This document shows, piece by piece, positions 5,595 to 31,782 of a stretch of 34,084 nucleotides of DNA; the stretch's first letter is position 1; each line of letters opens with the position of its first letter. A model generated the notes under the pieces. That model had not been told where the DNA came from, did not search any database, and saw nothing but the letters and a program-made list of their open reading frames with translations. The translations under genes and the position numbers were made by a program. Origin of the DNA: a virus (taxonomy: Duplodnaviria; Caudoviricetes). The stretch is from IMG/VR virus record IMGVR_UViG_3300020202_000172, positions 1 to 34,084 of that record. One strand, written 5' to 3'.

Positions 5595-5666
5595 GCGCCC
5601 TACGGAGAGCGCGGATGGAGCGCCACAGGACGAGGACTGGGGCGAGGATCAGGAGGCCGAGGACGG

Positions 5667-6020
5667 CTAGGCAGACGTAGTCGTCGCGACGGGGCTCGGG
5701 GGGCTCGCCGGCTGGGGCTGGTTCGGCAGGCCCCAGACCTTCTTCTCCCGGTTGTTCCGGTAGAAGTTCACCCCGAGGAAGCTCGTCACCAGGGTCGCGA
5801 TCCCGGTCCCGATCGTCTGGGGCCAGTCGATCGACTCCCCCTGCTCGGTCAGCAGGGCTCGGATCGACTCCGCTTCCTCCGGGGAGATCACTCCATCGGC
5901 CACCGCTGCGTTCCAGGTGGCGGTCAGGCGCTCCCCCACGGTAGGGGACACGGCACACGCGGCGAGAAGCAGGAAGGCCGCTAGGGCGGGAAGGCAATGC
6001 GCTCGTTTCATGAGGATCAT
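5667..6020 (-). CDS. Lipoprotein with C-terminal hydrophobic helix (spanin-like)
   Basis: (MIL)MKRAHCLPALAAFLLLAA|C lipobox and later TIGTGIATLVTSFLGVNFY followed by RNNREKK. Start at 6020 or 6011. Confidence 0.65.
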   Translation of the reverse strand: MILMKRAHCLPALAAFLLLAACAVSPTVGERLTATWNAAVADGVISPEEAESIRALLTEQGESIDWPQTIGTGIATLVTSFLGVNFYRNNREKKVWGLPNQPQPASPPSPVATTTSA

Positions 6021-6412: not shown

Positions 6413-6619
6413 ATGGCCCAATTCCCGTGGCGCCGAGCCCGCCCGCTTCTGCTCGCGCTGACCCTGCTCTCTGCCCTCGCCTGGGCCTTCTGGGAGCAGG
6501 CGACGCGCTTCGACTACGAGCGCCTGAGCGCGGACACCCTGCGCGTGACGAACACGCGGACAGGGGAGACCTTCCTGCTCACCGGGCCCGACATGGGGGC
6601 CTTGGAGCGGGAAGAGTAG
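6413..6619 (+). CDS. Small single-TM membrane protein (moron-like)
   Basis: MAQFPWRRARPLLLALTLLSALAWAFW-EQATRF...NTRTGETF, 68 aa, antisense to flanking genes. Confidence 0.7.
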   Translation: MAQFPWRRARPLLLALTLLSALAWAFWEQATRFDYERLSADTLRVTNTRTGETFLLTGPDMGALEREE

Positions 6620-6703
6620 CGGGGGGCTGGCGCCGTCCCAGGGATGGGATAGGCTGGGGGTGGGGCTGGTCCCATGCGGGCCGAGCCCCACGGAAGCCCC
6701 ACC

Positions 6704-6976
6704 ATGAGCAAGATCACCAAGACGGGCCTGATCCTCGGCCTGATAGCCTTCGCCGGCTGGTACGCGATTACAGCGCGTTTCCAGACGCGCCGGCTCGGCA
6801 ACACCACGTACATCCTCACGGACACCTGGCGGTCGCAATCCTGGTTCGGGAACGGCGGCTATCTGACGCCGCTCTCGCCGGAGTCGCTCCAGACCTTCGA
6901 CGCACGTTTGCGAGCCGAGAAGCTGGACCGCGATCTGTCCGCCCTGATCGAGGCGGTACCGCCCTCCGACGAGTAG
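6704..6976 (+). CDS. Small single-TM membrane protein, candidate superinfection exclusion factor
   Basis: MSKITKTGLILGLIAFAGWYAI-TARF...DTWRSQSW...DLSALIEAVPPSDE. Converges on the ejection protein gene. Confidence 0.7.
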   Translation: MSKITKTGLILGLIAFAGWYAITARFQTRRLGNTTYILTDTWRSQSWFGNGGYLTPLSPESLQTFDARLRAEKLDRDLSALIEAVPPSDE

Positions 6977-6981
6977 AGCGT

Positions 6982-9900
6982 TCACGGCACGTTCTCCCGG
7001 ACGGCCCGAAGGAGCTGCGCGATGGCAGCGTCCGCAGCCGCGCCGTTGTCGGACTTCTTGGCTGCCTTCACGCGGCGCTCGACCACCTGCGCGCGGGCGG
7101 CGAGGTTGGCGTAGGCCGCTTCCTCGGGCGACAGATCCTTGCCCGCCTTCCGTCGCTCGACGGCCCGCTCGATCTTTGCGAGCACGTCGTAGAACTCCCG
7201 GATCTCGTAGCTCTCGTCCGGCTCGGACGCGAAGCGGCGCACGAGCGGCACGTCCTTGAGCGTCCACTCCCCGGACTGGACCCGCTGGGGGAGCTCGACC
7301 ATCCGCCGGGCGAACTGCCCGACGCCGCCGGAGAGGAAGTCCGAGAAGTGCTCGATCGTCTCCGGCGAGATCGAGATCGCGCCTTCGCGCTGGTCGTCTC
7401 CGCCCGTCGCCCGGTTGAGCCAGTCCGTGAACGCCTTGGCGTTCGGGGAGACGCTGTCGAAGTGCCGCTCGGAGTCCGGCGGAGGCGTGCGGTCGAACGG
7501 GTTTTCCGCCGGCATGATCGGCTTGCCAGCATGGTTCTTGTTCTCCTCGACCTCGATGAACGGGCGCAGCGCGGTCGGCGCTACCGCCTGGAGCGGGGTC
7601 GAACCCCCGAGCGGATCGAAGTTCTGCCGCGCAGCGACGAGCACCTCAAGGCCGGCTTCGGTCGGGCTCAGCGCGCCGGAGACAACCTCCTCCGCCAGCG
7701 AGCCCATGTAGTAGAAGAGTCCATACCCCCAGGGGAGCGGAACCTTGACGCCCTTCCCTTCGGTGCCGGGGATCAGGAACGTCAGGTTCTTCGACTTGTC
7801 CCAGGTCGAACGCTTCTCCCAGTAGGGGACGCCGTCGTCGTCCTCCCCGCCTCCGACGCGGTTGAGCCAGGAGAGGACGTAGCCCGCAGCCGCGAGGCCC
7901 AGCGTCATCTTCTGGATCTGGCGGTTCTTGACGACGCCCGTGAGCACGCGCGCCGAGCCCTGGACGTTCGCGTTCGCGAAGAGATACAGGCTGTTGAGGA
8001 CCGGGCCCCACTCGCCCTTGCGGTTGAAGTCGACCGTGAGCTCGCGAGCGATCTTCGCCGCGCGCTTCTTCGAGATCCCCATCTCGCGCGCCACGCTGTA
8101 GGCGTGGAAGCGCATCGCGTTCTCGACGGCCTCGTTGAGGTCGCGGATGAACTGGTCGGCCGCCTTGATCGCCTTCTTCGGGCCCGGCGCCTCTACCGCC
8201 GTCGCCTTCTCGATCTTGCGTAGCTGCGTCTCGAACGACTCGATCGTGCCCCAGCCCGCCTTGCCGCCCTCCTCGGCGAACTCGCGCGCGCGATCGTACT
8301 GCGCCCCCTTCGCGTCGGGATCCCTGGCGAGGGTCCAGAGCGTGCGCAGCGCTTGGCCGACCTTCTTCGGGCTGCGGAACGCCGAGGAGAACGCCTTGCC
8401 CTGCTCGGCCGAGATGTGGATCCCGGCCGTCGAGAGGTCGCGGACGAAGTTGGTCGCCCAGAACTCCGGGTTGCGCGCCGTGAGCAGTTGCCCGTACTGG
8501 CGCATGACGAACGCGACCGGGCGCAGGAACTTCGGCGCGTCCTCGACGCCGACGCCCTTGAAGGCCGCCGCGTAGCGCTCGTCCCGGACGACGAGGTAGC
8601 GCTCCCTGCCGTTCTCCTTGAAGGCCAGGACGTAGCCTTTCGCCGCGTCCTCGGGCTTGGGCTTGTCCGTCACTTCCCAGAGCGGGTCGGGGTTCGCCTC
8701 GACGAGCTTCGCGACGGCGGTCCCGACGCGGTTCTTCTCGGCGCGGAGCACCGCTTCCTTCGCCTGGACGAAGGTCCAGACGAGCGGGTTGTCGGCCTTG
8801 GACTGGCGGCCCTCGGCGCGCTTGGCTTCCTTGCCCTTGACGTTGAGCGAGCGGCCGCCGCCGACGCCCTGCTCGGGGTCCGTGGCCGTGCGCAGGGGGA
8901 CGTAGGTCGAGCCGAACTTCTCCCACGCGGCGCGGCCCTCGGAGGAGAGCAGCCCGCCCTCTTCCAAGGCGTCCAGGCGCTCGCGGTTCACGCGCTCGAC
9001 GATCCGGGCGAGGCGCTCGAAGTGCGGCCGGCGCGGGTCCTGTGCGACCCTGGAGAGCACCGCAGCGGCCTCGGCGCGCGTCATCCCGGCGCCAGTCTCT
9101 TCGGGCCCGAGCTTCGGGTTGCGCTCCAGGATGACTCGGCGGCGGTCCTCGGCGTGGCGCGCAGCCAGGAACTCGCCGGCCTCTTCCGGGCTGATCTGCG
9201 CGCGCTGGAGGATCTGGCCGACCTGCTTCTCGGGCCCGCGCTCGATGCGCGCGACGCGCTCCGCGGCTCGTCCAGGCATGAGCGAGGCCGCGAGGTCCAC
9301 GTCCGCCTCCTCGGGGACGGCGCCGCCCTTCTCGGCGACGACCTTCTGCGCCACGCGGAAGCGGTTGAGCCGGTCCCGGACCTTGCGCTCGATCAGTTGG
9401 AGCGGGGTCTCCGGGGGCAGGGCGAGCGAGTCCGGCGTGGCGCCGGCGCGCGAGGTGTCCGGGGCGCGGGGGCGGAAGTCGGAGCCGCCGAGGAGACCGA
9501 AGCCCCAGGCATCCGCCGTGACGGGCGGCAGGCCGGCCTCGTCCTCCGGGATGTCGAACGGGACTTCGTCCACGACCTCCGGCTCGGCGCGCGACGCGCT
9601 GTCGGGCTGGGTGTGGAGCAGGAAGTCGAGCATCTCCTGCTGGCGAGCCGTGAACTTGCCGGGCTTCTCCGAGGTCGCCCGCTCGATCAGGCGCGAGACC
9701 TCCGTCGCGCTCATGTTCCCGGGGCGAGAGAGCCACCAGGAGGAGTTGGGCTCGGGGCGCGTGCGCCCGATGACCGTGCCCTCGGCGTTGCGGATCTGCT
9801 GCCCGCCGGACTTGCCGCCGACCTCCATCGCGAGGCGGCCGAGGTGCTCGCGCACGCGCGGGTCGGAGAGGTCGGGCTCCGAGGGAGGCGTGACCTCCGG

Positions 9901-12081
9901 GGTCACACTTGTGCCCTCGGGAGTCACATCGGCTTGGGAGGGAGCCCCGGCATCGACCTCGGCCGCGGGTAGGGCCGTCTGAGAGGTGGTGTCGGCCGGG
10001 GCTGGAGGGGGGGTGGGGGCGTGCGTCTTGGTGATGAGCACGTCCGAGTCGTCGAAGACGACGTAGTTGTACGTGCCGTCGCCCTGCGCTCGGCTGTTCT
10101 CGTCGAGGTACTTGATCCCGCGGATACCCAGGCCGCGCAGCTCGCGGCTCGCTGCCGCCGCGTCGCCGGCCGCGCCTCCGGTCAGGCGGCGGTAATACTG
10201 CTCGCCTGTTTCGCGCGCGAACGGGTGCGCCTCGTCCATCGCCTTGGTCAAGGCGTCGTACTCGGGCATCTCCGAGAGCGGGATGCCCTGCTCCTGCGCG
10301 CGCGCGGCCAGGGCTTCCTCGGCCGCGAAATCCCGCACCTTGACGCCGAGCGCGGCGCGCACGCGCGGGGACTGCTCGCTGAGGGGCCTGTCCCACAGCA
10401 GGAACTCGTCGTCGGCGGGGACGAGGTTGGCCTCGTAGGTGCGTCCCTGCGTGCGCTGGAGATCCTGCTGGTTCGTCTCCAGCCACCCGATTGACTTCGC
10501 CAGGCGTGCGCGGCCAGAGGCGTATTCCGAGTCCTTGAGGGCCTCGGCGCGCTCGCGCATCGCCCGGAGCGCGGCCTCGACGGAGCGGGCCTTCTCAACC
10601 TCGTCGATCGCGTCCCGCGCCTCGGGCGGGAGCGCTCGGGCCTCCTCCGTCGGCACACCCTGTCTCGAGACCTGCGCGCCCTTGAAGGTCACGCTGCTCG
10701 ACAGGGCCTCGCGATAGTGGTCTCCGATCTCCTTCGTGTCAGTGAAGTAGAGCCCGTGCCCGAACGTCTGCGCGCCCTCGCCGGTCCCGATCTTCTGCGT
10801 AGAGAAGCGATCGAACTCGTGCGGCGAGCCGTGGTAGACGGTCTTGCCCCGGGGGGCGGCCTCGGTGCCCGACTCGGAGACCGCGTAGTTGACGGGCTCG
10901 GTGCGCCCCCCCTGATCCAATGGGTTGGCTGTCGGCGCGGCCCGCTCGGAAATCGCGGTTTCCTCGGCGGCTGCGGCCGGCGCCGTCGTTTCCTCGGGCG
11001 TGGCCGGCGGTACGGCCTCGATCAGCGCGTCGAGCGCCTCGTCGGACGCCAGCGAGGTGTTCACCCCTGAGACCGCTATCGAGGTCCCGCCGCCGACCAC
11101 GGCTCCCACGCCCATCGCGCGGCCGGTCTGGCCGAGGTTGATCTCCGCCTCGGGCTGGTAGGTCGCCTTGCGCACGGCCTGCGTGCCGAGGTCCTGGAAG
11201 CCCTCCTGGACCGATTCGCCCAGGCTCTCGACGCCCACGCGGCGCACGAGCCCGCCGCCGGCCTTGCCGAGCCGCCCGAGCGCTCCGCCGACACCAAAGA
11301 CCTCGCCGGCCCCCAGGAGGCCCTCGACGGTCGTGGCGACCGCGGTCTCGCCCGGCGTGGCCCCCGCAGCCTGAGCCGACTCGAAGCCCTCGTTGCCGCC
11401 CGCAAGGGCTCCTGCCGCAGCCATCCCAGGACCCCCGAGTAGGGCCGCAGGGACCATCGCTGCCGCGCTTCCCAGGCCCGCCGGCACGTCCGAGGCGAGG
11501 AACGAGTCCTCCAAGCCGGGAACGGGCGGGGCAAGCCCTTGGCCGAAGCTGCGGATCCCCTGGACGAGCGGGTCCTGCGCCGGGTCGGGCTGGTCTCCCG
11601 GCAGGATCGAGTCCGCGATCCGGAAGAGGCCCGTCAGCCCCGAGGCCGCGAAGCGCGCACCGCCCCGCGCGAAGCTCCCGATCGCCTGCTGCGCGTAGTC
11701 TCCGACGCTCGCGCCCTCCGCCGGCACGGCAGCGATGAGCGCGTCCAGCGGGTCCGGCTCGGGCGGGACCGCTGCGATGAGCGCGTCCAGGGGGTCGGCC
11801 TTGCCCGCGGGCGTGAAGACTTCACCCTGCCAGCTACCGGCCTTGGCCCGGTTCGCGCCGACCGCGTACTGCGACTCGACCGAAAAGGTCTCGTGATTAG
11901 GCTTCTTGAACGTGTCCGGCCAGTGCCCGGTCGCTGGGTCGGGCTCGATCCCGGCCTTGAAGGCGCCGCGCAGGTCGTAGTCCGCGCCTGAGTCCTGCGG
12001 CGCGTACTTCGCCTTCCACTGGCGGAACGCGGCCTCCTCGGCAGGCGAGAGCTTCGTCTCGTACTGTCCGAGCTGGGGCAT
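6982..12081 (-). CDS. Large internal virion/ejection polyvalent protein with ART-PolyVal-like and LPD38-like domains
   Basis: 1699 aa at the end of the tail module. Gly/Ala-rich hydrophobic N-terminal region; VYHGSP..FDRF..IGTGEGAQTFGHGLYFT...GIKY...NYVVFD (ART-like); VDFNRKGE and FLIPG..KVPLPWGYG (LPD38-like). Confidence 0.85.
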   Translation of the reverse strand: MPQLGQYETKLSPAEEAAFRQWKAKYAPQDSGADYDLRGAFKAGIEPDPATGHWPDTFKKPNHETFSVESQYAVGANRAKAGSWQGEVFTPAGKADPLDALIAAVPPEPDPLDALIAAVPAEGASVGDYAQQAIGSFARGGARFAASGLTGLFRIADSILPGDQPDPAQDPLVQGIRSFGQGLAPPVPGLEDSFLASDVPAGLGSAAAMVPAALLGGPGMAAAGALAGGNEGFESAQAAGATPGETAVATTVEGLLGAGEVFGVGGALGRLGKAGGGLVRRVGVESLGESVQEGFQDLGTQAVRKATYQPEAEINLGQTGRAMGVGAVVGGGTSIAVSGVNTSLASDEALDALIEAVPPATPEETTAPAAAAEETAISERAAPTANPLDQGGRTEPVNYAVSESGTEAAPRGKTVYHGSPHEFDRFSTQKIGTGEGAQTFGHGLYFTDTKEIGDHYREALSSSVTFKGAQVSRQGVPTEEARALPPEARDAIDEVEKARSVEAALRAMRERAEALKDSEYASGRARLAKSIGWLETNQQDLQRTQGRTYEANLVPADDEFLLWDRPLSEQSPRVRAALGVKVRDFAAEEALAARAQEQGIPLSEMPEYDALTKAMDEAHPFARETGEQYYRRLTGGAAGDAAAASRELRGLGIRGIKYLDENSRAQGDGTYNYVVFDDSDVLITKTHAPTPPPAPADTTSQTALPAAEVDAGAPSQADVTPEGTSVTPEVTPPSEPDLSDPRVREHLGRLAMEVGGKSGGQQIRNAEGTVIGRTRPEPNSSWWLSRPGNMSATEVSRLIERATSEKPGKFTARQQEMLDFLLHTQPDSASRAEPEVVDEVPFDIPEDEAGLPPVTADAWGFGLLGGSDFRPRAPDTSRAGATPDSLALPPETPLQLIERKVRDRLNRFRVAQKVVAEKGGAVPEEADVDLAASLMPGRAAERVARIERGPEKQVGQILQRAQISPEEAGEFLAARHAEDRRRVILERNPKLGPEETGAGMTRAEAAAVLSRVAQDPRRPHFERLARIVERVNRERLDALEEGGLLSSEGRAAWEKFGSTYVPLRTATDPEQGVGGGRSLNVKGKEAKRAEGRQSKADNPLVWTFVQAKEAVLRAEKNRVGTAVAKLVEANPDPLWEVTDKPKPEDAAKGYVLAFKENGRERYLVVRDERYAAAFKGVGVEDAPKFLRPVAFVMRQYGQLLTARNPEFWATNFVRDLSTAGIHISAEQGKAFSSAFRSPKKVGQALRTLWTLARDPDAKGAQYDRAREFAEEGGKAGWGTIESFETQLRKIEKATAVEAPGPKKAIKAADQFIRDLNEAVENAMRFHAYSVAREMGISKKRAAKIARELTVDFNRKGEWGPVLNSLYLFANANVQGSARVLTGVVKNRQIQKMTLGLAAAGYVLSWLNRVGGGEDDDGVPYWEKRSTWDKSKNLTFLIPGTEGKGVKVPLPWGYGLFYYMGSLAEEVVSGALSPTEAGLEVLVAARQNFDPLGGSTPLQAVAPTALRPFIEVEENKNHAGKPIMPAENPFDRTPPPDSERHFDSVSPNAKAFTDWLNRATGGDDQREGAISISPETIEHFSDFLSGGVGQFARRMVELPQRVQSGEWTLKDVPLVRRFASEPDESYEIREFYDVLAKIERAVERRKAGKDLSPEEAAYANLAARAQVVERRVKAAKKSDNGAAADAAIAQLLRAVRENVP

Positions 12082-12084
12082 CGC

Positions 12085-13275
12085 CTACTTCCCACCTCGC
12101 AGCGCCGCCTTGATCTTCTCCGGCGGGTCTCCGTTGGCCTTCATGCGCGCCACCATGCGGACCTGGTCCTCGGTCGCGCCCGCAGCTTCGATCGCCGCTT
12201 GGAGGTCCGGAGCGGGCGCCTGCTGCGCCGGGGCCTCGTACAGCCCCCGGTACTCGCTCACGAGCGCGCGCCGGTCGGTCTTCGGATCCAGCCACCGCTC
12301 GTCCTTCTGCGCGAGCTCGATCGCCGTCGATTGCAGCTTGAACTCTCGCTCGGCGTCCTTGTCCTTGGTGTCGGCCTGCCGCGAGCGGGCGCGTCCCGGT
12401 TGCAGATGCCCGATCGCCTGCTGGTACGCCTGTCCGGCTTTCGCAGGCTCGATCTCCATCTGCGCCGCCGTCGCGAGCGCGCGCTCCAGCCGCGACGACA
12501 GCTCGTCCGCCTCGCCGTAGTCGCCGTTCGCCTCGGCCGCGTCGATCCGGGCGCGCAGGCTGTTCGCCAGGGTGTCCAGCTTCGATCGGTATTCTCCGAC
12601 CATCTGCTGCTGCGCCTGCCGAGCGCCCGCCTCCTTGCGGATCCCCGAGAGCGCCGCGAGCAGCGACTTGTGATCGCCGCCGAGGGCGAACGTCTCGGCC
12701 GCACCCTGCACGCGCGGAGCGAGCACGGGATCTCCGGCGATGGCGGGATTGGCCATCATCTCCTTCAGGGCCGTGTCGGCTTCGAGGCGCTGCGCCTCTT
12801 TCTGCCGGCCCTGGAAGCGCTCCCGCTCCTCCTTCGTGAAGCGCGCCGCGAACTCTGGGTCCTTGAAGCCCGACGCGACCTGGGAGAGACGGGCCTCGAA
12901 CGCCCGCTCGGGGTCCTGATCGGGCGCGACCGGCTGCGCGAGCATCTGGAGCCCGCGCGAGTACGTCGCCACGTCCGACGCCTCGTTCTGCTCGGAGCGC
13001 AGGAAGCGACTGTCGATTGCGGCTTGCCGCTCGTCGATCTGCGCGTAGCGCTGCTCCTGGAGATCGAGCCGGCGGTTCGTCGCCTCGTCCTGCCGGCGCT
13101 GGCGCGACATCTGGTACTCGGTCGCCCGCAGAGCGTCCGCGCGCTCCTGTTCGTACCTCTGATCCGCCACCTTCTCCCGCTTGCGCTGGTGGTAGCGGTG
13201 GAACCCTGCACCGACGCTGTTCTGGTAGGCCGCCCCCGCTGCTTCCCAGAAGTCGTCTCCGATCACGGCCGGCAT
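12085..13275 (-). CDS. Putative internal virion/ejection protein (alpha-helical, Gln/Arg/Glu-rich)
   Basis: 396 aa coiled-coil-like protein, middle of three genes after the tail genes as in podoviral ejection modules. Confidence 0.65.
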   Translation of the reverse strand: MPAVIGDDFWEAAGAAYQNSVGAGFHRYHQRKREKVADQRYEQERADALRATEYQMSRQRRQDEATNRRLDLQEQRYAQIDERQAAIDSRFLRSEQNEASDVATYSRGLQMLAQPVAPDQDPERAFEARLSQVASGFKDPEFAARFTKEERERFQGRQKEAQRLEADTALKEMMANPAIAGDPVLAPRVQGAAETFALGGDHKSLLAALSGIRKEAGARQAQQQMVGEYRSKLDTLANSLRARIDAAEANGDYGEADELSSRLERALATAAQMEIEPAKAGQAYQQAIGHLQPGRARSRQADTKDKDAEREFKLQSTAIELAQKDERWLDPKTDRRALVSEYRGLYEAPAQQAPAPDLQAAIEAAGATEDQVRMVARMKANGDPPEKIKAALRGGK

Positions 13276-13276
13276 T

Positions 13277-13921
13277 TCAGTCGTCTCCGAACAGCGCGTC
13301 GCCCGCCGCGGCTCCGGCAGCGCCGCCCAGGGGCCCGAGGAACGAGCCCGCGACGCCGCCGAGGAGCGAGCCCAGACCGCTCTTTTTCTTCTGCTTGGGC
13401 TTGTTCAGGTAGTTGAAGTGCAGTCCTCCGACTCCCATCAGCGCCCCGAACTTGTCCTGGTAGAGCCCCGCAAGCCCCGACTGCGCCCCGCCGAGCGCCA
13501 TGCCCTTCTGCGCCTGGAGCCCCGCGACCGCCTGAGCAAGCGCTTGGTCCACCTGCGCCAGGTTCTGCGAGCCCTGCGAGTAGAGCCCGCCTTGCAGGTT
13601 CGCGTTCACGGTCGTGTTCGCGAGGCCCGACTGCTGCAAGCCCGTCTGAAGCCCGGCGAGCGCCTGCGCCTGGTTGTTCATCACGGAGGTCTTGGCCGCC
13701 GTAGCGCCCGAGCCCGCGCTGGAGATCGCCTTGTCGAACTGACCTCCGATCGTCTTGGCGGCCTGCTTCTGCGCGAGCAGCGCCAGCGCGTAGTCCGTCG
13801 CCTGCGCGCCGTAGAGCTTGTTCAGGAGATCGGCGACGTGGTTGGGCTTCTTCTTGGGCGTCTTGAGCTTGGCGAGCCCAAGCTCCCCACCCGGAGCGCC
13901 AAAGTCCTTCATCTGCGCCAT
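13277..13921 (-). CDS. Putative ejection/pilot protein (Gly/Ala/Gln-rich)
   Basis: 214 aa with C-terminal GLGSLLGGVAGSFLGPLGGAAGAAAG glycine-zipper. Position is analogous to P22 gp7. Confidence 0.65.
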   Translation of the reverse strand: MAQMKDFGAPGGELGLAKLKTPKKKPNHVADLLNKLYGAQATDYALALLAQKQAAKTIGGQFDKAISSAGSGATAAKTSVMNNQAQALAGLQTGLQQSGLANTTVNANLQGGLYSQGSQNLAQVDQALAQAVAGLQAQKGMALGGAQSGLAGLYQDKFGALMGVGGLHFNYLNKPKQKKKSGLGSLLGGVAGSFLGPLGGAAGAAAGDALFGDD

Positions 13922-30535: not shown

Positions 30536-30655
30536 CCCGTTAGCGCCCCATATGTGGTAGGATGAGCGCGCCGGGCCCCAAGCCCTCGTGGGTCGTAGCC
30601 GAGCACGAGCGAGCGGCCAGGAGGCGCCGGCAGAACCCCCGAAAGGCTCTCCCTC

Positions 30656-31603
30656 ATGGCTCTCGCAGCCTTCCTGATCCGCGACCACAACGCCTCTGCG
30701 TCCGCGCACGGGGCCCTCACCAGCCCCGTCCTAACCACGCCGGTGCTGTCGGGCACCGTCACCGGCACCTACACCCTGGGCGGGACCGTCACCGTCGCCT
30801 CCCCGACGATCACTGGCTCGATCGTCCTGGAGGGCACCACGGACGACGCGAGCGAGCTGACGATCTCGTGCGAGCCGACCGCGGACCGCACGCTGACCCT
30901 GCCGGACGCCACGGACACCCTGGTCGGCAAGGCGACGACCGACACGCTGACGAACAAGACGCTGACCTCGCCCCGGATCGGCACGGCGATCCTCGACACC
31001 AACGGCCTGGAGCTCGCGAAGCTCACGGCGACGGCGTCGGCGGTCAACGAGGTCACGCTCGCGAACGCGGCAGCGGGCAACGGGCCGACGCTCTCGGCCA
31101 CGGGCGACGACACCAACATCGACCTCAACATCGCCCCCAAGGGCACGGGGACGGTCCAGATCGCCAGCGACGGCGTTACGCGGTTCGTGCAAGTCGCGCT
31201 GACCGCCGCCGAGGTGAAGGCGCTGCGGGCGACGCCCAAGACGCTCGTGGCCGCCCCGGGCGCCGGCAAGGTGCTGGAGTTCCAGGGCGCCGTGCTCCTC
31301 CTCGACTACGGCACCACGCAATTCGCCGAGGACGGCGGGGGCTCGAACCTCGGCATCCGCTACACCGACGGCTCCGGCGTCAAGGTGTCCGAGGACATCG
31401 AGATGACCGGCTACATCACCCAGAACGCGGACTACGTGACGTTCGCGGTGCCGGACGGCGGGGCGGCGACGGCGATCGTGGCGAAGACCGGCTGCGAGAA
31501 CCAGGCGCTCGTCCTGCACAACGTCGGCGCGGGCGAGATCGTCACCGGCGACAGCCTCCTGCGTGTCAAGGTCGCCTACCGCGTCTGGTCGACCGGCTTC
31601 TAG
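30656..31603 (+). CDS. Putative virion fibre/decoration protein
   Basis: 315 aa, Thr-rich. DRTLTLPDATDTLVG..TDTLTNKTLTSP and ATGDDTNIDLNIAPKGTG are recurrent phage fibre motifs. Confidence 0.7.
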   Translation: MALAAFLIRDHNASASAHGALTSPVLTTPVLSGTVTGTYTLGGTVTVASPTITGSIVLEGTTDDASELTISCEPTADRTLTLPDATDTLVGKATTDTLTNKTLTSPRIGTAILDTNGLELAKLTATASAVNEVTLANAAAGNGPTLSATGDDTNIDLNIAPKGTGTVQIASDGVTRFVQVALTAAEVKALRATPKTLVAAPGAGKVLEFQGAVLLLDYGTTQFAEDGGGSNLGIRYTDGSGVKVSEDIEMTGYITQNADYVTFAVPDGGAATAIVAKTGCENQALVLHNVGAGEIVTGDSLLRVKVAYRVWSTGF

Positions 31604-31622
31604 TCCCTAGCGGGCGCTGCGG

Positions 31623-31653
31623 GCGGGGCTCCGAGAGGGGCCCCGCTTCGTTT
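31623..31653 (+). terminator. Rho-independent terminator
   Basis: GCGGGGCTCC-GAGA-GGGGCCCCGC 10-bp stem followed by TTCGTTT, 20 nt after the 31603 stop. Confidence 0.7.
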
Positions 31654-31782
31654 CCAGGGTGAGAGAAGCGCGCGGTGTTTCATGGCCTAGCTATCTCGAA
31701 AAGGCGTCCCGGGCTCTCCCCGGGCACCATGCCGCGCGCGACGGACTAAGCGTTCAGGAGTAACGCCACGTCCGATTCGGGT

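Follow-up and report, generated by a model that had tools for sequence, protein, structure and literature searches.

The DNA analysed here, called the window in what follows, is the 34,084-nucleotide (nt) stretch covering positions 1 to 34,084 of the IMG/VR record IMGVR_UViG_3300020202_000172, a Caudoviricetes phage whose DNA source records are soil metagenomes. Its minus strand carries, in this order, an adaptor gene (PF24175), the genes of a 1427-amino-acid (aa) protein and of a fibre-like protein, and then three genes for proteins of 214, 396 and 1699 aa. The 1699-aa protein contains an LPD38 domain (PF18857; E 3.5e-35, 122 bits against a Pfam cut-off of 27), and its gene is the last of three co-oriented genes located 3′ of the tail genes, as expected of an LPD38 ejection protein; for the 214- and 396-aa proteins, we infer ejection roles from gene position. 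Two small open reading frames (ORFs) for predicted membrane proteins of 90 and 68 aa lie on the opposite strand and converge on this ejection operon from behind (Table 1). The main subject of this work is the first of them, as its C-terminal tail resembles a peptide repeated in the 1699-aa protein and could act as a decoy for it.

The 90-aa antisense ORF looks like a real gene, and its codon use is gene-like (GC content at third codon positions, GC3, of 0.88, as compared with 0.89–0.97 in six neighbouring minus-strand genes). An alternative ATG upstream, at 6674, would lengthen the protein to 100 aa. In its AlphaFold2 model (mean predicted local distance difference test score, pLDDT, of 74.9), the long helix ends in the shared motif. 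No match for the protein was found in Pfam, PHROG, NCBIfam or PADLOC, and homolog searches returned only the protein itself, one other protein, P0082 (E 4e-4, 35% identity), and one repetitive artefact. Additionally, an ESM Atlas search gave only leads below 0.9, and a fold search of the model against BFVD gave nothing at E ≤ 0.001. The 68-aa ORF, which was overlooked in the first-pass annotation, is a likely paralog, although the two proteins are weakly related (local score 45, P = 0.0055 against shuffles).

In the first-pass annotation, three copies of a short motif were described in the N-terminal part of the 1699-aa protein, a description borne out for all three on the minus strand, and a further copy, DLSALIEAVPP, was seen in the tail of the 90-aa protein, which is also present, with its span corrected to 6932–6964 because the earlier 6935–6964 left out the D. 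These four copies are the top four matches in a six-frame scan of the window (scores 61, 53, 44 and 34, the next being 26). When the 90-aa ORF was compared with residues 1–450 of the 1699-aa protein, a 10-mer score of 43 was obtained, against a shuffle mean of 24.4, and none of 3000 shuffles scored as high either way; moreover, among 73 ejection N-termini, the phage's own ranks first for its match to the ORF. With position ignored, one of 200 shuffled six-frame windows matches the observed motif score. A chance similarity of amphipathic helices would nevertheless be conceivable, as LDALIAAVP is also found in unrelated proteins of viral contigs, but the shuffles, the ranking and the whole-window comparison, the last of these before position is counted, have already largely refuted this explanation, which we regard as highly improbable. 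The weaker copy that had been proposed near the end of the 396-aa protein, DLQAAIEAA, fared differently: it is the best match in that protein, but with P = 0.17 it was rejected as a motif copy. In the AlphaFold2 model, it corresponds to helix 1 of the C-terminal tip of the 396-aa protein, and it could be an internal motif-like helix of that tip.

Table 1. Positions in the window of the genes, repeat copies and other features discussed in the text (res, residues).
Feature	Position	Strand	Basis or remarks
214-aa Gly/Ala/Gln-rich protein	13277..13921	-	gp7/gp14-like first ejection protein, judged from position and composition; no family match
396-aa helical protein	12085..13275	-	gp20/gp15-like tunnel protein, judged from position; no family match
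C-terminal three-helix tip of 396-aa protein, likely receptor of the repeat	12088..12210	-	AlphaFold2; helices res 358-365, 369-380, 385-393
1699-aa large polyvalent protein, likely gp16-like ejection protein	6982..12081	-	LPD38 res 1421-1614; weak ART-PolyVal res 413-461
Repeat copy 1, DPLDALIAAVPP, res 96-107 of 1699-aa protein	11761..11796	-	motif scan
Repeat copy 2, DPLDALIAAVP, res 110-120 of 1699-aa protein	11722..11754	-	motif scan
Repeat copy 3, LDALIEAVPP, res 350-359 of 1699-aa protein	11005..11034	-	just past Gly/Ala-rich weakly hydrophobic segment
Recombination node in 1699-aa gene, about res 692-715, where variants branch	9938..10006	-	contig breaks; joint 6663 to 9938
90-aa candidate decoy	6704..6976	+	membrane helix (predicted), res 3-23; meander of four strands, res 26-57; long helix, res 59-83; then motif tail
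Motif copy DLSALIEAVPP, res 77-87 of 90-aa protein, then SDE-stop	6932..6964	+	9/10 residues as in ejection copy 3
Second antisense membrane ORF (68 aa), probable paralog of 90-aa protein, lacking motif tail	6413..6619	+	alignment; GC3 0.91

At the DNA level, the tail forms a 24-nt inverted repeat (92%) with 11006–11029, that is, with copy 3, and the two have in common a rare GTA codon (4 of 333 valine codons). Five of nine codons are identical, where 4.99 would be expected from codon bias, and four of the nine shared codons differ at silent sites. As nine of ten residues have been kept despite this silent drift and the rare GTA is shared, these ten codons provide a hint that the tail may be an old copy of copy 3 that has since been retained at the protein level.

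The probable function of the repeat is suggested by other phages. A survey of 242 loci with an LPD38 match, 140 of them with complete genes, gave 78 clusters, 73 of which have proteins of at least 1000 aa; a significant self-repeat was found in the first 400 aa of 24 of these 73 large-protein clusters, some being Gly-rich noise, and the genuine N-terminal repeats differ wholly from phage to phage. A scan for one of the repeat types, NPFDQFD, gave 121 loci (112 distinct), of which 68 were kept after dropping loci below 3 kb, six in which no large ORF had an N-terminal copy and one that offered no room. In 57 of these 68 loci, a pattern match finds one and the same tip type upstream, and the 11 misses consist of six loci that show the tip by eye, three that belong to another protein family with a chance motif and two without the tip. 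In this set, 60 large proteins have 400 aa or more, and they fall into 24 unrelated BLAST clusters. As a control among LPD38 loci, the tip pattern was found in both of the two loci with the motif and in one of 51 without it. For a second type, KPWEE(F/Y), 80 of 105 loci were examined, 19 distinct loci had the motif at the start of the large ORF and 17 of them had an upstream ORF for reading; in 15 of these 17, a second tip type ends the upstream ORF, as judged by eye and with four of them being near-identical F116-like records. Since the repeat type tracks the upstream C-terminal tip in both motif types, the N-terminal repeat probably mediates docking onto this tip of the upstream ejection protein, and the docking signal proposed in the first-pass annotation thus gains support from other phages.

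Two of the copies in the 1699-aa protein stand before the Gly/Ala-rich segment and one after it, and the same two-plus-one layout is seen in several NPFDQFD proteins (L331, L354 and L359). The first 90 aa of the protein, ahead of the repeats (window 11797–12081, minus strand), form a separate domain, and a similar-looking start was noticed by eye in the large protein of L060. The ART-PolyVal match (window 10600–10850, minus strand) is below the cut-off, and there is a weak PHROG match at residues 598–687. A fold search of the tip model against the PDB gave nothing at E ≤ 0.001. A complex prediction for the tip (residues 338–396) with residues 52–90 of the 90-aa protein, run without controls, gave no answer (score 0.03, mark 0.34) and is counted neither way. 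In L450, which carries P22 genes 20 and 16, the end of gp20 and the start of gp16 are short strand-like stretches, perhaps another tip–peptide pair by eye. In the record of phage F116 (L485:8890-9000), the start of the giant gene, with its KPWEEF, occupies a short frame of its own, apart from the remainder of the gene.

A longer record of the phage analysed here (G001) contains, outside the window (L269:7134-11271), an integrase (PF00589, E 7e-21), a MerR-type helix-turn-helix (HTH) protein, an IS1595-family transposase ORF and an HTH_3-like ORF, with a DNA methylase and an AAA_24 protein close by. Because of the integrase and the HTH proteins, the phage carrying the 90-aa gene is judged to be temperate. 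We propose, with a probability of about 0.5, that its 90-aa gene codes for a tethered decoy that would block the assembly of the conduit, and hence the entry of DNA, of phages with the same peptide type. According to this model, the gp16-like protein would use the repeat to dock on the gp20/gp15-like tunnel protein, as the data from other phages suggest. In a lysogen, the 90-aa protein would be inserted in the inner membrane with its N-terminus in and its tail out, showing the peptide at the end of the long helix. This decoy tail would occupy the tip of the incoming tunnel protein, so that the large protein could not dock and the conduit would not be completed. The tail might have arisen by the copying of copy 3 onto a pre-existing membrane scaffold, of which the 68-aa paralog would be the version without a tail, and would then have been kept at the protein level.

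Several observations weigh against this proposal. A scan for promoter-like and terminator sites found none, and the topology of the protein is ambiguous, with two basic residues ahead of the helix and three behind. A scan of viral contigs at the DNA level for this phage's own motif gave 25 loci, of which only that of this phage lies in an ejection protein, the others being in unrelated proteins; as no second example of its motif type was found, the pairing of repeat and tip in this phage is drawn by analogy. Furthermore, P22 SieA shares no peptide with gp16 (P = 0.49) or gp20 (P = 0.23), yet it excludes.

The test suggested in the first-pass annotation, whether the small membrane gene adjacent to each LPD38-type ejection gene bears that gene's own motif, had a mostly negative outcome. 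Behind 34 of 70 LPD38 genes, there are 42 convergent hydrophobic ORFs, and only the 90-aa one matches a repeat motif, the other 41 giving no such match; two of these do rank first, but on Pro/Thr-rich stretches that are not repeats. No convincing decoy was found in 25 other LPD38 phages scanned over 11–81 kb, nor within 10 kb in any of the 68 NPFDQFD loci. A uniform test of 3187 small ORFs at 147 loci, which is only moderately sensitive (the 90-aa case has a z of 3.1) and covers most loci within 10 kb only, gave two plausible cases, or 2 of 147 loci with a cognate decoy: the 90-aa gene and L497 (z 6.1). In L497 (L497:7324-7674, minus strand), and likewise in L500 and L514, a 116-aa antisense ORF with a signal peptide ends in the cognate KPWEEY, and the near-identical L487 is without this moron at that place. 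This F116-like moron is a scaffold unrelated to the 90-aa protein and, as a second cognate decoy, speaks for the proposal. No decoy was seen in DC1, Gervaise, Gerry, BcepIL02, 45A6, Page, RPZH6 or F116, several of them without a recovered true N-terminus of the large gene; F116 itself has KPWEEF twice and no further pattern match. Decoy-like genes thus exist but are sporadic, and their scaffolds are unrelated. Two borderline candidates, a 59-aa ORF of L008 and a holin-like ORF of L014, have lysis-type or ordinary genes as neighbours and were left out of the count. Additionally, small convergent membrane ORFs without a cognate motif are found directly behind the LPD38 genes of L004, L009, L138, L156, L183, L192, L195, L204, L218, L224, L225 and L228, and these twelve are candidate SieA-position genes of other kinds.

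Population variants of the phage provide evidence on both sides. The contigs of run X2 break at 6634–6663 and at 9938–9967, a borderline joint links 6663 to 9938 (at a depth of 12 and with 30 letters on its short side), and in run X3 one contig tracks the window to 6663 and then diverges, while several records branch at 9938–10006. Pieces of a sibling strain in X3 match copies 1 and 2, with 7 differences in 126 nt, as well as the tip, with 1 in 218 nt; the flanks differ, and this retention of repeat and tip speaks for the proposal. These breaks and matching pieces indicate that, among variants, the 90-aa gene is exchanged along with the part of the large gene that codes for the C-terminal 985 aa, and not with the motif-bearing half, and that the repeat and the tip are kept, a joint exchange that would fit a target in the C-terminal half instead. 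The 68-aa ORF is unchanged in the sibling strain. The 68-aa protein is encoded on four contigs, the 90-aa protein on two and P0082 on two, and P0082 may be the other allele at the 90-aa locus. The tail of P0082, the sole homolog found, scores 18 against the motif, which is below chance, and this non-matching tail, together with the swap with the C-terminal half, argues most strongly against a strict code of motif and decoy. In a variant contig, a lipoprotein-like gene of the lysis region (window 5666–5807) was also found to vary: 698 other letters stand between 5665 and 5703, and 5703–5807 shows 18 differences.

Part of this evidence would be accounted for if the 90-aa protein were a SieA-like exclusion factor, or some other moron, acting through its membrane helix and β-meander on the C-terminal half of the large protein, its tail being left over from an inverted copy of DNA and contributing little. 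Such a protein would be expected to travel with the C-terminal half of the large gene, as the 90-aa gene does, and the lack of the motif in both the 68-aa paralog and P0082, the 24-nt inverted repeat with its shared rare codon and the location of the SieA escape mutations of P22, at residues 532 and 546 of gp16 and 338–350 of gp20 (in the part of PMC10883804 available), are all in its favour. However, the silent sites have drifted to the level of codon bias while nine of ten residues were kept, and what was copied is precisely the repeat, in frame and C-terminal, as it is in the unrelated moron of L497; we therefore consider an incidental tail unlikely, if still a serious candidate. It could also be that the tail does bind the tip, but for the benefit of the phage itself, the protein being made right after entry and either capping or dismantling the spent conduit or stopping the progeny from re-injecting. 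That the motif belongs, by construction, with the phage's own ejection set would be in keeping with such a role. Nonetheless, most phages with such repeats have no such gene nearby and L487 does without the moron of L497, so a decoy-like gene is dispensable, and the antisense position matches that of sieA, a gene expressed in the lysogen, all of which makes a self-directed role quite unlikely in our view.

Doubts may also be raised about the tip as the partner, as the repeat might bind a host protein or serve capsid loading, the 90-aa protein titrating or using the same partner and the pairing with the tip reflecting the linkage of neighbours. Repeat and tip are a few hundred bases apart and can thus be inherited together, and the signal of a Mantel test on 25 LPD38 loci (r 0.48, partial 0.39, Spearman 0.14), which we do not rely on, is driven mostly by three related pairs. 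Against this, the pairing extends over the 24 unrelated large-protein clusters and is repeated in the second motif type, no correlation (r 0.03) is seen for a region 100–150 aa away from the C-terminus of the upstream protein, and the repeats are wholly different between phages, which is not what a signal to a conserved partner in the host or capsid would look like. Consequently, we deem another partner improbable.

Returning to the tethered decoy, the pairing of repeat and tip is the better supported part of the proposal and holds whether or not the 90-aa gene is a decoy, whereas the 90-aa locus is an orphan; the proposed mechanism is surprising. In a wider and more tentative form, the model could be extended to short-tailed phages in general, which might assemble their conduit by means of a swappable lock and key, the repeat and the tip, and whose temperate members might repeatedly have grafted the key onto unrelated envelope scaffolds as type-specific decoys, the 90-aa gene being one more independent graft and exclusion groups being readable from sequence. 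We consider this extension possible, though somewhat doubtful. In any case, the repeat–tip pair offers a concrete small interface that bears on how very divergent ejection proteins find each other, and a decoy carrying the repeat would be an exclusion mechanism for which ten residues could suffice to predict the specificity. If this were true, genomes could be used to tell exclusion groups apart, and phage resistance based on peptides would be open to trial in laboratory strains. Elsewhere in the window, a 366-aa ORF (30562–31662, plus strand) lies on the strand opposite to its neighbours and has no family matches.

In the literature searched, which was available in part, we found no report of these N-terminal repeats or of exclusion by a decoy, and the known systems resemble the present one in some of its elements. 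The LPD38 protein gp47 of phi24B was found in virions by proteomics and has been proposed to be ejected (bioRxiv 10.64898/2026.04.10.717836). Like the 1699-aa protein, gp47 is very large and has an LPD38 domain above the curated cut-off, but identity is about 31–39% and limited to the C-terminal part, and neither N-terminal repeats nor exclusion are mentioned in the available part of that preprint. In the T7 ejectosome, the gp16-N tape (residues 157–228) binds, orders and stabilises the C-terminal part of gp15 (PMC8954989, available in part), a contact between an extended N-terminal stretch of the large ejection protein and the C-terminal part of the tunnel protein like that proposed here for the repeat and the tip. 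By contrast, T7 uses a long “molecular tape” instead of short swappable repeats, and no decoy is described in the available part of PMC8954989. The prophage membrane proteins HK97 gp15 and those of TP-J34 and Tuc2009 block DNA entry and are escaped through changes in a conduit-forming protein (cited in PMC10883804); unlike the target proposed here, theirs are the tape measure or tail proteins of siphophages, and no mimicry is reported for them in the available part of that paper.

The closest parallel is P22 SieA, which blocks injection through gp16 and gp20 (PMC10883804, available in part), the mode by which SieA-type proteins stop DNA injection being described there as unresolved. The 90-aa gene has the same position and orientation as P22 sieA: both are small membrane genes of temperate phages with short tails, antisense to the last ejection gene and converging on it from directly behind, with the ejection conduit as the proposed target, and there are 5 nt between the stops of the 90-aa and 1699-aa genes, while P22 sieA ends 22 nt from gene 16. 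The proteins themselves are unlike each other, as SieA has 162–164 aa and three predicted membrane helices according to the available part of PMC10883804, as compared with 90 aa, one predicted helix and a β-meander. No sequence similarity was found between the two (local score 22, P = 0.80), and membership in the SieA family was rejected on this ground, together with the wrong length, the wrong number of helices and the absence of an NCBIfam, PHROG or Pfam match. Specificity is also expected to differ, as P22 SieA is effective against divergent ejection sets and a peptide decoy would be predicted to be type-specific. By inference from these likenesses and differences, the 90-aa protein would work like SieA but is no SieA.

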